A stretch of DNA of 64,000 nucleotides, taken from positions 96,001 to 160,000 of IMG/VR virus record IMGVR_UViG_3300035696_000004. One strand, written 5' to 3'. Both the position numbers and the translations under genes were made by a program. The notes under the pieces were generated by a model, which was not told where the DNA came from, made no database searches, and saw only the letters and a program-made list of their open reading frames with translations. The stretch is from a virus. Its lineage: Duplodnaviria > Caudoviricetes. Shown one piece after another: positions 8,807 to 52,780 of the stretch (its first letter is position 1; every line of letters begins with the position of its first letter).

Positions 8807-8857
8807 TTACTACTGAATGTCATTTCCGTAATATAGTCATGAAATATTCTAGAATCG
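8807..8857 (-). promoter_or_regulatory. extended early promoter element, copy 1
   Basis: CGATTCTAGAATATTTCA-N4-TATATTAC-N5-TGACATTCAGTAGTAA on the minus strand; ungapped match to copies at 52730 and 63945. Confidence 0.8.
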
Positions 8858-43950: not shown

Positions 43951-45681
43951 ATGGCTAAAATCCCAAAAGATGAGATTGCAGGTTACGAGTGCCGATTCGC
44001 TGTACACATCCCTCCACCTCCGGGGGAACACAACGACTACCACTTGATCAAAGAAGTCATTCACCTCAAGGATGGCTCTCGCGTCCCAAATATCCGCATC
44101 AAAGAGAATTTCAAACGTTCCTTCTACGTCACCAAGAAAGGGTTTCAAAACCACAAGAGCAAGAAGGAATGGGAAGACATCGATAAGCTCAACAAGTTCG
44201 AGTGCACGCAAAGTGAACTCCAATTTGCTGTCGCTAAAGCCCTGGGTGCAACAGGCAAGATGGACAAATGGGTACCGACCCCGATGCAAGTCGGTAAGAA
44301 AGGATCACGTAGCCCATATCTCTACGGTAGTGACATTCTCTCCACGGCGATCATCAAACGACAATACGCGGAAGCCTTCCCGACACTCAACACACCCTAT
44401 TCGGTAGCCTGTTTCGATACGGAAACCGATATGGAGAATGGCACCGGCGAAATTATCATGGCGACGCTCTCTTTTGGGAGTAAAGTCGTTACGGCTGTTC
44501 GGCGTGACTTTCTCAATGGTGTCGCGAATGCAGAAGAACGTGCTCGCGAGATGTTTCAACGTTATCTCGGCAATATCACGGATAGCGATGGCAATGTTAC
44601 AAACCTCGTCGAGAGTCGAAAGATCGATTGGGAACTCAAGATCGTCGACACAGAGATCGAGATCATCACGACGTGCTTTAAACGAGCACACGAGTGGAAG
44701 CCGGACTTTGTAGCTATCTTCAATATCGACTTCGATGTCCCGAAGATGCTCGATGCCTGCAAACGTGCCGGTGTAGATCCCAAAGATATCTTCTGCGATC
44801 CTTGTATACCGAAGGCCTATCGGTTCTTCAATTACGTTCAGGGACCGCGCCAAAAGAAGACAGCCAAAGGGGACATCACTCCGCTCAAACCCCATGAGCA
44901 GTGGCATACGGTCTTTTGTCCGGCGAGTTTCTACTTTATTGACGCGATGTGCGTCTATAAAAAGATCCGGAACGCTGAGCAGGAAGAGCCCTCGTACAGT
45001 TTGGATGCGTTGCTCAACAAGCATCTTGGGTTGCGTAAGCTGAACTTTACGGTGGCAGATGGTTTTGTTAAGGCCGACTGGCATATCTTCATGCAGACGC
45101 AATATAAGCTCGAATACGTCATTTACAACGTGTTCGACTGCGTCTCGATGGAGTTGCTCGATGAGAAGACAAAGGACTTGTCGATCGCGATGCCGATGCA
45201 GTCGGGAAGTTCTGACTTCTGCAACTTCAAGTCACAGCCTCGCCGTACGGTTGACAACTTGCATTTCGTCTGCCTGATGCGAGACAAGGTCATTGGGTCG
45301 ACGTCTGATGAGATGTCGGACGGATTCGATGGGTTGACTTTGGGCCTTGACGATTGGATCGTTACCCTGCCGGCACACTTGGTGATGGATAATGGTCTTT
45401 GTATCATCGAGGAATATCCGGCGATGCGCACCAATTGCCGGGCGCACATAGGTGATTTGGACGTTTCGGCAAGTTATCCAAATGGCGAGTGTGTCTTCAA
45501 TGTTTCGAAAGAGACGACCCATACAGAACTCTGTTCTATTGAGGGTGTGGACGAGGAACTCCAGCGATTGGAAGGTGTCAATCTCAGTGCAGGGCCAACG
45601 AATGCACTTGAAATTTGTCACCATCTAATGGGGATGCCCACGTTGGATGAGCTCCTCGAATCATTTGAAGATGCTGCCTAA
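43951..45681 (+). CDS. DNA polymerase family B, split subunit (3'-5' exonuclease plus motif A; phiKZ gp82-like)
   Basis: ExoI FDTET, ExoII FNIDFD, ExoIII YNVFD, Pol motif A DLDVSASYP near the C-terminus. Confidence 0.85.
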   Translation: MAKIPKDEIAGYECRFAVHIPPPPGEHNDYHLIKEVIHLKDGSRVPNIRIKENFKRSFYVTKKGFQNHKSKKEWEDIDKLNKFECTQSELQFAVAKALGATGKMDKWVPTPMQVGKKGSRSPYLYGSDILSTAIIKRQYAEAFPTLNTPYSVACFDTETDMENGTGEIIMATLSFGSKVVTAVRRDFLNGVANAEERAREMFQRYLGNITDSDGNVTNLVESRKIDWELKIVDTEIEIITTCFKRAHEWKPDFVAIFNIDFDVPKMLDACKRAGVDPKDIFCDPCIPKAYRFFNYVQGPRQKKTAKGDITPLKPHEQWHTVFCPASFYFIDAMCVYKKIRNAEQEEPSYSLDALLNKHLGLRKLNFTVADGFVKADWHIFMQTQYKLEYVIYNVFDCVSMELLDEKTKDLSIAMPMQSGSSDFCNFKSQPRRTVDNLHFVCLMRDKVIGSTSDEMSDGFDGLTLGLDDWIVTLPAHLVMDNGLCIIEEYPAMRTNCRAHIGDLDVSASYPNGECVFNVSKETTHTELCSIEGVDEELQRLEGVNLSAGPTNALEICHHLMGMPTLDELLESFEDAA

Positions 45682-46069
45682 GGTGACATATATGGAAGAC
45701 CCTTACAGACTTTGGACAATTCAAATGGGTAGTTGGCGGGTAGCGAGGGATAGAGGGATCAAGTTTCTCGATATCACGGCAAAATCCGGCATTGCGCTGT
45801 TTGCTCCTGATTTCTCATTAGTCATGGGGTACAAGAACGGTTCTGTTAGTGAGGAGGAATACACTCGGCACTATCTAGACAAGATGATGAGGAGTCAGAG
45901 AAGCGCTCCTAATTACTGGAATAACCTGCAACGTTATCACGACATTGCGTTCGCGTGTTACTGTCCACCTGATGTCTTTTGTCATCGGCATTTGTTTAGA
46001 GATTTAGCAAGTGAACATTTGATCAAATTAGGTCACTCTGTTGAATTGATGGGTGAGTTACAAAAATAA
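45671..46069 (+). CDS. DUF488-like protein
   Basis: FAP...YKNG and ACYC...FCHRHL motifs. Confidence 0.55.
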   Translation: MLPKVTYMEDPYRLWTIQMGSWRVARDRGIKFLDITAKSGIALFAPDFSLVMGYKNGSVSEEEYTRHYLDKMMRSQRSAPNYWNNLQRYHDIAFACYCPPDVFCHRHLFRDLASEHLIKLGHSVELMGELQK

Positions 46070-46098
46070 ACAAAGAAAAAAAAGAATGGTGGTGATTG

Positions 46099-46134
46099 CC
46101 CCCTGAGAGCCTAGGCTCTCAGGGGGTGTATGAC
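46099..46134. terminator. bidirectional hairpin between convergent units
   Basis: 28-bp perfect palindrome CCCCCTGAGAGCCTAGGCTCTCAGGGGG followed by TGTATGAC. Confidence 0.8.
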
Positions 46135-46135
46135 G

Positions 46136-46306
46136 TCAGTGCAGCTTTTGTAGCGCGCATCGGCGCGCATTGTTGATCAGGAGGGTACGTTCCAGACCCG
46201 GCAGGGTAGGTAGGAGCGTTTGTTCGTAGGCACGGAGATAGTCGGCTAGGGCTTCACCGACACGGCGGTCACGGAACTTTACGGAGGTACGATCAGTAGG
46301 TCTCAT
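46136..46306 (-). CDS. 56-aa small protein absent from the ORF track
   Basis: MRPTDRTSVKFRDRRVGEALADYLRAYEQTLLPTLPGLERTLLINNARRCALQKLH; AAGGAG SD; ends at a terminator. Confidence 0.7.
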   Translation of the reverse strand: MRPTDRTSVKFRDRRVGEALADYLRAYEQTLLPTLPGLERTLLINNARRCALQKLH

Positions 46307-46371
46307 GATGACTCCTTGACGATGAAATGACCGCGATCAGATATAGTCACGGTCGATCTAGCAGAATGATT

Positions 46372-47079
46372 TCAGAACCCCATTGACATCATGAGGTCTA
46401 TGATTGTCCGAGTACCCGTGCGACCCAGATTCGGGAGCTTGAGCAGCGCTTCTTCTTTCACCACCATCAAGTCCAGCAGGTTGTTGATTCCTGCTGCGAT
46501 GAGGGTATTTTTCACCCGTTGTTGCAACGGCAGCCGTTCGACAGGTACATGGGCCAGCAAGCCGACAGGGATCGCACGACCCTGCACTTGACGCAAGGTG
46601 CGTTTCGTTTCATCGTACTCGATGAAACCGGACGAGTAATACGGGGCTTCGATCGTAGACGAACCCGTCAGGGTGTCCAAAACACGTTCCAAAGCCTCTT
46701 GAGTCGGGTAGAAGTACCGGACCCGTTTATCTTCGGCAGGCCCCAAAACCATGGCGGCATTTGTGTCGTCCTTGGCCGACGGGTCGATCTGACCTGCGTT
46801 TACGACCTTGCTCAGGTCCGACGCACTGATGATGCGTTTCAGATCTTCGAGGGGGATGTGGGTTTCGCTGGCCGCGATCCCATCCACATCGGACTGGGAG
46901 AGGACGTACAAGAACGGGAACACGCTCTCGTCCATATAGGTCAGCAGATGCATACCGCATTGCTTTTCGAGCTCTTCAATACCCGCTGCGTTTTTCACGT
47001 AGTAGGTGTTTTCGAAGACCTTGACACACGCGTCACCTGCCAAGATTTTGAGCAGGGGGGAATTGTTAGTTTTAGCCAT
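46372..47079 (-). CDS. protein with C-terminal RNA polymerase alpha-CTD-like domain
   Basis: PVERLPLQQRVKNTLIAAGINNLLDL...LLKLPNLGR aligns by eye with E. coli [26 protein letters not shown]...LLKTPNLGK. Confidence 0.8.
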   Translation of the reverse strand: MAKTNNSPLLKILAGDACVKVFENTYYVKNAAGIEELEKQCGMHLLTYMDESVFPFLYVLSQSDVDGIAASETHIPLEDLKRIISASDLSKVVNAGQIDPSAKDDTNAAMVLGPAEDKRVRYFYPTQEALERVLDTLTGSSTIEAPYYSSGFIEYDETKRTLRQVQGRAIPVGLLAHVPVERLPLQQRVKNTLIAAGINNLLDLMVVKEEALLKLPNLGRTGTRTIIDLMMSMGF

Positions 47080-47092
47080 GGTGTTTCCTTTG

Positions 47093-47545
47093 TTAGATGA
47101 TGGAGGTGAGATGGTGAACATACGGGAAGCGCTTGCACTTCATGCCAAAACGCCCGTGGTCGGCCGGTAAAGGTTCGAGCGTGGCCGGATTAAAGCCGAG
47201 CCAAGCGATAATGCTTTCCCGGGTGAAGAAGTGGACAGTACCTTTGTACTCGTCGTAATTCATCGGGGTGACTGCTGCGCAGACCAGTGACACGATATCG
47301 ATAGGTCCATCGACTTCGAAGCTGTACATGCCGCGAGCCACCCCGTAGATGTTCTGGTCTACCACTTTATACAGGAAGGTGTAACTGGTGTCGCAGAGCG
47401 CCAAGACTTCAACAAGTCGCCGCTCCGGGGCGGCGAAGAGCTCCTGGAGATCATCACCGGGAAGAACCTTGTAAGAACACTGTACCGACCGGACATTGTA
47501 AATGCAATCGATGCGGTCCCCGACAGAAATCAGTTTGGTCATCAT
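47093..47545 (-). CDS. hypothetical protein
   Basis: 150-aa ORF in the early operon. Confidence 0.65.
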   Translation of the reverse strand: MMTKLISVGDRIDCIYNVRSVQCSYKVLPGDDLQELFAAPERRLVEVLALCDTSYTFLYKVVDQNIYGVARGMYSFEVDGPIDIVSLVCAAVTPMNYDEYKGTVHFFTRESIIAWLGFNPATLEPLPADHGRFGMKCKRFPYVHHLTSII

Positions 47546-47575: not shown

Positions 47576-47601
47576 CACCCGGGGACCGAAGTCCCCGGGT
47601 G
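47576..47601 (-). terminator. cUUCGg hairpin, putative terminator
   Basis: CACCCGGGGAC/GTCCCCGGGTG 11-bp stem. Confidence 0.7.
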
Positions 47602-48042: not shown

Positions 48043-48531
48043 TCAGTTGAAATGGTCGTGGGCTTCTTTCAGACCACATCCCATGGTCGCGCGGTAAAAT
48101 TTCACCGCTTCGATCTTTTTACCTTGTGCGATGAGCTCTTTGCACTGGCGGTCGAGGTCGTCGACACTGATGGTGCTCGCAGGTAGCATCTGCTTACGCA
48201 GTTCATCAAGCTCACGGCGATAGCTGTTGATCACCGTGCTGAGGAGGCTCTCGTATGCCATCTTTTCTTCCATGGTCGGAGGATTCGATGCGAAGGGGAG
48301 TTGTTCGACCTCCTTTACCGTTTCTTGAAGAATCTTGACCAGAGAGTTCGGACTGTCGGTCAGATCGTACGGTCCCGGGCTCACGTGCTTCTTGACGAGG
48401 GCGCCTAGGACGATCAGAGGTTTGGCTACCTCGAGCTTCTCCTCGAGCTCCATGGTTTTGGCAGCTTGCTTGGCCAACTGCTCCCGGACTTCAGCGAGGG
48501 TGAGGCAGGTTGAAACAAAAGATTCGGACAT
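48043..48531 (-). CDS. coiled-coil protein with C-terminal ribosomal bL12-CTD-like motif
   Basis: GKKIEAVKFYRATMGCGLKEAHD vs E. coli L7/L12 [22 protein letters not shown]. Confidence 0.7.
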   Translation of the reverse strand: MSESFVSTCLTLAEVREQLAKQAAKTMELEEKLEVAKPLIVLGALVKKHVSPGPYDLTDSPNSLVKILQETVKEVEQLPFASNPPTMEEKMAYESLLSTVINSYRRELDELRKQMLPASTISVDDLDRQCKELIAQGKKIEAVKFYRATMGCGLKEAHDHFN

Positions 48532-50737: not shown

Positions 50738-50923
50738 CTAGCGCCAGTCAGACGGGCGATGTACGACGCCGCCTTCGGGTACGTAATGGACACTACCGGG
50801 TTCGCAGTAGGCGCAGGTGCGATATCCCGGTCCGAGGTATACTTGGCGCGCCGGAACAACAACGCAGCCTGTGAAGAGGCTGCAAAGCAGCCCAATGAGC
50901 ATGATCTTAAGTGCGGTTTTCAT
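50738..50923 (-). CDS. small putative lipoprotein
   Basis: MKTALKIMLIGLLCSLFTG-CVVVPAR lipobox-like signal; GGAG SD. Confidence 0.7.
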   Translation of the reverse strand: MKTALKIMLIGLLCSLFTGCVVVPARQVYLGPGYRTCAYCEPGSVHYVPEGGVVHRPSDWR

Positions 50924-52729: not shown

Positions 52730-52780
52730 TTACTACCTAAAGTCATGCGAGTAATATGTCAGTGAAATAATCTGGAATCG
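52730..52780 (-). promoter_or_regulatory. extended early promoter element, copy 2
   Basis: CGATTCCAGATTATTTCA-N4-CATATTAC-N5-TGACTTTAGGTAGTAA. Confidence 0.8.

Follow-up and report, generated by a model that had tools for sequence, protein, structure and literature searches.

An RNA polymerase alpha-CTD-type domain on an orphan N-terminal part in an uncultured phiKZ-like jumbo phage

Background

[quoted passage not shown] To our knowledge, no multisubunit RNAPs other than those of jumbo phages lack alpha subunits. The absence of alpha from these enzymes has been described (PMC7598289), and a search of the literature for phage-encoded alpha-CTD homologues retrieved only studies in which phage factors act on the alpha-CTD of the host.

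Two groups of described proteins carry comparable domains outside RpoA. Goe8_c00050 (QDP42789.1) of Bacillus phage vB_BmeM-Goe8, which was the one clear phage case when GenBank phages were queried with a consensus-like alpha-CTD, is annotated as 'RNA polymerase subunit alpha'. It comprises 210 aa, with an unassigned N-terminus and a single PF03118 domain at the C-terminus (residues 147-203, 78 bits), and is located among small hypothetical genes near one end of the genome. The architecture of an unassigned N-terminus followed by a C-terminal alpha-CTD is therefore already present in the cultured phage record; no functional study of Goe8_c00050 was found in the literature. The second group consists of uncharacterised bacterial proteins with two to twelve tandem alpha-CTD-like repeats (e.g. 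WP_075305165.1), which are annotated as 'DNA-directed RNA polymerase subunit alpha C-terminal domain-containing protein' and carry further partner domains, among them sigma-70 region 4. Here a 235-aa phage protein of related design is compared with these systems. Its gene is located in a window of 64,000 nucleotides, which spans bases 96001-160000 of an IMG/VR virus record; this record is 219,772 bp long and bears direct terminal repeats.

Results and discussion

The source is a phiKZ-like jumbo phage

The window stems from a jumbo phage that is uncultured and of the phiKZ-like, nucleus-forming type, and the phiKZ-like setting presumed in the earlier note is borne out by several features. A 576-aa neighbour of the gene under study matches phrog_3011, a family of phiKZ-type DNA polymerases, with 688 bits, and a gene for a tail tube protein (Phage_TTP_15) is found near it. 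On the basis of this DNA polymerase, the nearest cultured relatives are Burkholderia phage FLC9 (58 %) and the Ralstonia phages RP12 and RP31 (52 %), and the nearest uncultured relatives reach 57-58 % at most. The 219.8-kb genome encodes a beta-like RNAP fragment, and no match to the alpha N-terminal domain PF01000 was found anywhere in it, which together fit the published alpha-less RNAPs of jumbo phages (PMC7598289). The DNA polymerase gene is immediately followed by one (45647-46069, plus strand) with matches to Pfam DUF488-N3a (37.7 bits) and to phrog_2450; this gene has a low codon score (0.037), and the other pipelines give a shorter product of 114 aa.

The 235-aa gene

The coding sequence for the 235-aa protein occupies positions 46372..47079 on the minus strand, with its stop codon at 46372-46374. 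A Shine-Dalgarno core, AGGA (47086..47089, minus strand), is located 6 nt upstream of the ATG at 47079; another possible start further upstream, the ATG at 47121, would overlap the ORF before it and lacks a Shine-Dalgarno sequence. Codon usage, scored with a model trained on 73 long genes of the same genome, yields a log-odds of 0.384 bits/codon, which is among the highest in the vicinity, against 0.029 for the antisense ORF. Two independent pipelines call an identical 235-aa product, which occurs in five contigs from several samples. The gene at 46372-47079 is real, and it is a lineage-specific accessory gene. No paralogue of its product was found in its own genome. A 70-aa protein with 96 % identity (P0016) was discarded as a relative, as the 586-bp ENA contig encoding it was most probably assembled as a chimera, the right part being 100 % identical to window positions 46090-46490 and the left 225 bp unrelated.

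Neighbourhood and putative early expression

The gene is the second-to-last of a minus-strand block (52670 to 46136) of continuous coding sequence with approximately twenty small ORFans, where codon scores favour the minus strand. An ORFan of 150 aa (47093..47545, minus strand) ends 13 nt before the start of the 235-aa coding sequence, and the two are probably co-transcribed; no match to this ORFan was found in Pfam, PHROGs, NCBIfam or by tblastn against phages. The two-gene unit is preceded by a GC-rich hairpin of 11 bp with a TTCG loop (47576..47601, minus strand) and no clear T-run, which on sequence grounds may be a terminator, a pause or a processing mark. The block closes with an ORF of 56 aa (46136..46306, minus strand), which has a strong Shine-Dalgarno sequence, AAGGAG.

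A strongly conserved motif of approximately 26 nt (TCTAGAATATTTCAAAC-TATATTAC type) occurs in fifteen copies in the genome, all intergenic and on the minus strand, typically just after a GC-rich hairpin; the copies in the window are at 8855, 5543, 52778 and 63993 (minus strand). The copy at the head of the ORFan block (52745..52778, minus strand), located after a hairpin and a TATG, is weak in a PWM scan (22 of approximately 50 bits). The early promoters of RNAP-encoding jumbo phages are detectable bioinformatically, as an AT-rich conserved sequence near -10 (PMC7598289); the motif agrees with this description and is probably the early (virion RNAP) promoter of this phage. A/T tracts are found just upstream of some of these early-type promoters in the genome, and a scan for sigma-70 promoters found sites no more numerous than in shuffled sequence. 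Early expression of the 235-aa gene is plausible from this arrangement. The 'early' of the earlier note agrees with the early-promoter-like motif heading the block, the timing itself being read from position only.

Three further observations were made here. The core of the phiKZ late promoter is TATG, and GC-rich hairpins with TTCG/CGAG-type loops at 52826-52795, ~8893 and ~30756 (minus strand) are followed by TTTATGC or TATGCC, thus placing a TATG late-promoter core directly behind terminator-like stems. Within the ORFan block, a 61-aa ORF (50738-50923, minus strand) has a lipoprotein-like signal, with a hydrophobic stretch ending in Cys, and may encode a small phage lipoprotein. A 162-aa ORFan of the same block (48043-48531, minus strand) shows, at its C-terminal end, a weak match to ribosomal protein L7/L12 (TIGR00855, E 0.021, residues 137-159); if this match were true, the block would hold fragments of two host machines.

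The C-terminal domain has the alpha-CTD fold

The domain comprises residues 177-235 (46375..46551, minus strand) and was delimited with PF03118, AlphaFold2 and Foldseek. The Pfam model RNA_pol_A_CTD (PF03118), the search proposed in the earlier note, matches residues 177-228 with 32.9 bits (E 5.4e-8), above the curated gathering cut-off of 23.8. When the genome was scanned with the same model, 34.5 bits were obtained at window positions 46396-46551, and there was no second PF03118 match elsewhere in the genome. The NCBIfam matches of the protein are to rpoA models only, confined to the last 60 residues and far under the full-length cut-offs; for the rpoA equivalog TIGR02027, for example, 28.9 bits are reached against a cut-off of 227.8, the alignment covering the C-terminal 60 residues only. 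No match to the assembly domains PF01000 and PF01193 was found by Pfam in the protein, and all 31 of its sequence matches in the PDB are RNAP alpha chains.

The AlphaFold2 model places residues ~172-235 at a pLDDT of 89-98; the run used an alignment of 74 family domains, and agreement in the fold of the CTD is therefore partly expected. The best 50 Foldseek matches to this model in the PDB are all RNAP alpha subunits, with rmsd values of 0.8-1.4 Å over 56-64 residues and target TM scores of 0.75-0.93 for isolated alpha-CTD chains, and the DNA-bound alpha-CTDs 1lb2, 3n97 and 9zum superpose on it at 1.0-1.2 Å. As modelled, the last 60 residues fold into a genuine domain of the alpha-CTD type, compact and four-helical with a double helix-hairpin-helix (HhH). 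The uniformity of the best 50 matches indicates a fold that is specifically alpha-CTD, more than generic HhH, and thus, as far as the fold is concerned, the generic HhH outcome which the earlier note had named as its refutation did not arise. The domain has a net charge of +2 and a pI of about 10, which fits DNA binding; among 103 family domains the mean net charge is +0.5 (sd 2.4), and one third reach at least +2. A short linker joins it to the orphan N-terminal part.

Comparison with the E. coli alpha-CTD

The claim that the last ~60 aa align with the E. coli alpha-CTD holds, the alignment being gap-free over residues 179-234 (residue n of the phage protein corresponding to E. coli n+77). 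Identity to the E. coli alpha-CTD is ~37-41 % (~40 % for E. coli/Salmonella RpoA), and the fold agrees to ~1 Å over 56-64 residues. The phage protein differs in the absence of the alpha N-terminal assembly domain and of the C-terminal tail (G315/R317/L318), the protein ending at the equivalent of L312, as well as in a more basic domain and the substitutions K298T, S299G, C269T, D259R and E261P. The signature residues are kept (R188=R265, N191=N268, N217=N294 and G219=G296), and the contact residues shared with E. coli are V257, L262, R265, N268, E286, L289, K291, P293, N294 and G296. On the DNA face, C269 is replaced by T, K297 by R, K298 by T and S299 by G. In the 265 determinant, which in E. 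coli serves UP-element binding, R265, N268 and G296 are retained and C269T, K298T and S299G differ, with K297R providing an adjacent basic residue. The 261 determinant (D258/D259/E261) for contact with sigma-70 region 4, which is that of E. coli and may not be that of the host, reads E181, R182 and P184, and the 287 determinant (T285-L289, together with the missing tail residues) for contact with AR1 of CAP reads K-E-E-A-L (T285 to K, V287 to E and E288 to A).

A comparison set of 116 non-RpoA alpha-CTD-like domains, gathered by jackhmmer from 33 database matches, places these residues in a wider context. The same residue is found in 95/112 domains at R265, 87/114 at N268, 76/115 at N294 and 99/113 at G296. 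At position 298, T (16 domains) is second commonest after K (55) and followed by R (10), and at position 299, G ties with A for second (14 each; S in 62). The four kept residues are therefore the plain family signature, and T/G at 298/299 is an ordinary family variant. The residue readings of the earlier note, with R265, N268, N294 and G296 kept and T/G at K298/S299, are exact in the E. coli alignment. Its conclusion of an 'altered DNA-binding face' was over-read, since both T and G are common at these positions among the 116 domains.

The orphan N-terminal part

Residues 1-170 (46570..47079, minus strand) form an acidic part (pI 4.8) with a mixed alpha/beta prediction. No homologue of this part was found in Pfam, PHROGs, NCBIfam, the ESM Atlas or its own genome. 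Similarly, a HMMER scan of 1.84 billion representatives returned no N-terminal homologue, as the 33 matches (leaving out the query itself and the fragment P0016 from the chimeric contig) align to residues 158-235 only. Its description in the earlier note as an uncharacterised part of ~170 aa is thereby upheld. For the whole protein, no homologue was found in 50,697 phage records, IMG/VR, a word search of 5.8 billion clusters or the 1.84-billion HMMER scan. The pLDDT of this part is 37 in a single-sequence AlphaFold2 run and still below 65 with the family alignment, while the ESM Atlas model scores 0.47, with TM values of at most 0.33, and no fold could be assigned to residues 1-170 from these models. 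Both AlphaFold2 runs give, at low confidence, the same mixed alpha/beta pattern, with residues ~95-118 probably disordered. Kinship of the N-terminus with two other proteins (G013 and G014), suggested by eye by an N-P-x-L near the start and a P-F-L-[FY]-V, was rejected by BLAST and hhalign, in which the CTD alone aligns.

Distribution and relatives of the alpha-CTD domain

The best database matches to the domain are the bacterial tandem proteins, at 30-42 % identity. These differ from the phage protein in having several repeats and the aforementioned partner domains, and show no similarity to its N-terminal 170 aa. Over the alpha-CTD domain the best identity among the 1.84 billion representatives is at most 42 %, and the domain is thus not a recent copy of the alpha-CTD of a sequenced host. 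Judged by sequence, it is a diverged member of the alpha-CTD family and not a faithful mimic. Goe8_c00050 is similar in architecture, but its CTD is much nearer the bacterial consensus and only the CTDs align (27 % identity); moreover, Goe8 belongs to the Herelleviridae and relies on the host RNAP.

PF03118 was found in none of twelve cultured phiKZ-like genomes (FLC9, RP12, phiKZ, 201phi2-1, SPN3US, RTH11, pEa_SNUABM_54, SURPRISE13, pVa-21, pPa_SNUABM_DT01, Eowyn and RSL2). Two candidates for a syntenic counterpart in the nearest cultured relatives, gp348 of FLC9 with the genes around it and, in RP12, those that follow the DNA polymerase gene, were rejected, with no similarity and no PF03118. 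Among 31 uncultured relatives found via the DNA polymerase, PF03118 occurs in three, two of them above the cut-off. These uncultured phiKZ-like relatives encode a tandem alpha-CTD protein of 245 aa with two domains (L041:943-1680, plus strand) and alpha-CTD proteins of 241 aa (L042:1450-2175, minus strand) and 342 aa (L043:709-1737, plus strand). They belong to the same phage group, and the alpha-CTD is likewise C-terminal in the 241-342-aa proteins or, in the 245-aa protein, in tandem, where the second CTD is 39 % identical to that of the 235-aa protein. The L042 and L043 proteins have a common N-terminal domain of ~150 aa, over which they are 41 % identical to each other. Unlike the 235-aa protein, the relatives occupy other genome positions, have N-termini unrelated to its own by BLAST and hhalign, and in some cases lack the R265 equivalent which it keeps. 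The gene is accessory and patchily distributed.

The tblastn matches to the CTD in the phage collection were rejected, since most of them were rpoA genes of bacteria in records that are contaminated or wrongly assigned. Ordinary bacterial rpoA occurs, among other phage-filed records, in MT835508.1, where it is followed by an L17-like gene, OR851339.1 and CAKLQH020000003.1, and alpha-CTD matches in such records thus need to be checked before they are counted as phage genes. The 235-aa protein is an orphan-headed addition to the phage alpha-CTD proteins that are already labelled in databases.

Possible functions of the 235-aa protein

The reading tentatively preferred here, with a likelihood that we place somewhat below even, is that of a DNA-anchoring alpha-CTD module that tethers an orphan domain and interferes with or steers transcription at promoter-upstream DNA. 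By analogy with RpoA, the alpha-CTD would serve as a small DNA anchor, its R265-equivalent arginine entering the minor groove of A/T-rich DNA, and would tether the acidic orphan part of 170 residues to that DNA. Transcription at promoter-upstream DNA would consequently be interfered with or steered, for example if the module occupied UP-like sites for which it competes with the alpha-CTD of the host polymerase. That the protein binds DNA, which DNA it targets, how it influences transcription and that it is made early are what we infer from the following. A DNA anchor is suggested by the PF03118 match above the cut-off, the superposition on DNA-bound alpha-CTDs, the kept contacts, K297R and the pI of ~10, and a role in transcription by the location in a tight block of about twenty small ORFans behind an early-promoter-like motif. 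The retention of the DNA-contact core and the basic charge, together with the loss of the protein-contact patches of E. coli, favour DNA anchoring, and the constancy of the alpha-CTD alongside a variable carrier domain across related phages favours an anchor with a lineage-specific effector. Against DNA anchoring stand the replacement of K298 and S299 and the single CTD copy, with oligomerisation not indicated, where two alpha-CTDs are present in RNAP. Nucleus-forming phages keep their DNA shielded. The host RNAP is dispensable for RP12 and RP31 (PMC5468394), and with shielded phage DNA and a host RNAP that some relatives can do without, the gain from acting on host promoters is not obvious. 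The phiKZ-like phages RSL2 and RSF1 need the host RNAP (PMC5468394), which makes dealings with this enzyme conceivable in the phiKZ-like group.

The same retained fold and R265 equivalent, along with a position in a probable host-takeover block, could also be expected of a decoy, in which a free alpha-CTD titrates host partners of the RpoA alpha-CTD (for instance class I activators, sigma region 4, NusA or Spx-like regulators) or, in a variant of this explanation, soaks up an R265-modifying enzyme. A protein decoy is considered unlikely: with E-R-P in the 261 determinant, K-E-E-A-L in the 287 determinant and no C-terminal tail, the sigma- and CAP-contact patches of E. coli are not kept, and a decoy for sigma or for activators, the latter put forward in the earlier note, is without sequence support. 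Furthermore, the ceiling of 42 % identity among 1.84 billion representatives speaks against a faithful copy of the alpha-CTD of a sequenced host. For NusA in particular, the acidic repeats, including AR2, are limited to gamma-proteobacteria (PMC7171158), and the nearest phages infect Burkholderia and Ralstonia. An adaptor, the orphan N-terminus of which docks on the alpha-less phage RNAP while the alpha-CTD reads upstream DNA or recruits host factors, would suit a genome without the alpha N-terminal domain, the absence of alpha from jumbo-phage RNAPs (PMC7598289) and the A/T tracts just upstream of some early promoters. An accessory subunit of the polymerase would be expected to be conserved, and the gene is missing from 12/12 cultured phiKZ-like phages and 28/31 uncultured relatives, with the alpha-CTDs of the relatives carried on different N-termini at different loci; such an adaptor is accordingly regarded as very improbable. 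Finally, HhH modules have roles in many DNA transactions, and the alpha-CTD may be used as a generic HhH clamp by a DNA-binding accessory protein outside transcription, for instance one with a part in replication or recombination, in the organisation of DNA or in counter-defence. The DNA polymerase gene 0.7 kb away and the numerous bacterial proteins with two to twelve tandem alpha-CTD-like domains, to which no role is assigned, are consistent with this use. The gene is nevertheless opposite in strand to the DNA polymerase gene and part of the ORFan block, not of the replication genes, and its N-terminal part has no recognisable enzyme domain, for which reasons a function outside transcription is also thought rather unlikely.

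Conclusions

For this gene, the alpha-CTD domain and its fold, the kept contacts, the positive charge and the patchy accessory distribution are established. As no cultured phiKZ-like phage among the twelve scanned has PF03118, there is no direct experimental system. The point of interest is the setting, in phages whose own polymerases lack alpha: a few jumbo phages with alpha-less RNAPs yet carry free alpha-CTD copies on unrelated carriers. It is conceivable, though improbable, that the alpha-CTD is a detachable promoter-upstream reader or recruiter of host factors, with the N-terminus docking on the phage polymerase or on the machinery of the nuclear shell, and that lineages have repeatedly solved the same problem with different docking domains. 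Should the alpha-CTD copies bind UP-like DNA, or the partners of alpha-CTDs, phages would have in them a simple route for competing with host transcription or diverting it or, as an alternative use of such binding, for equipping their own polymerases.
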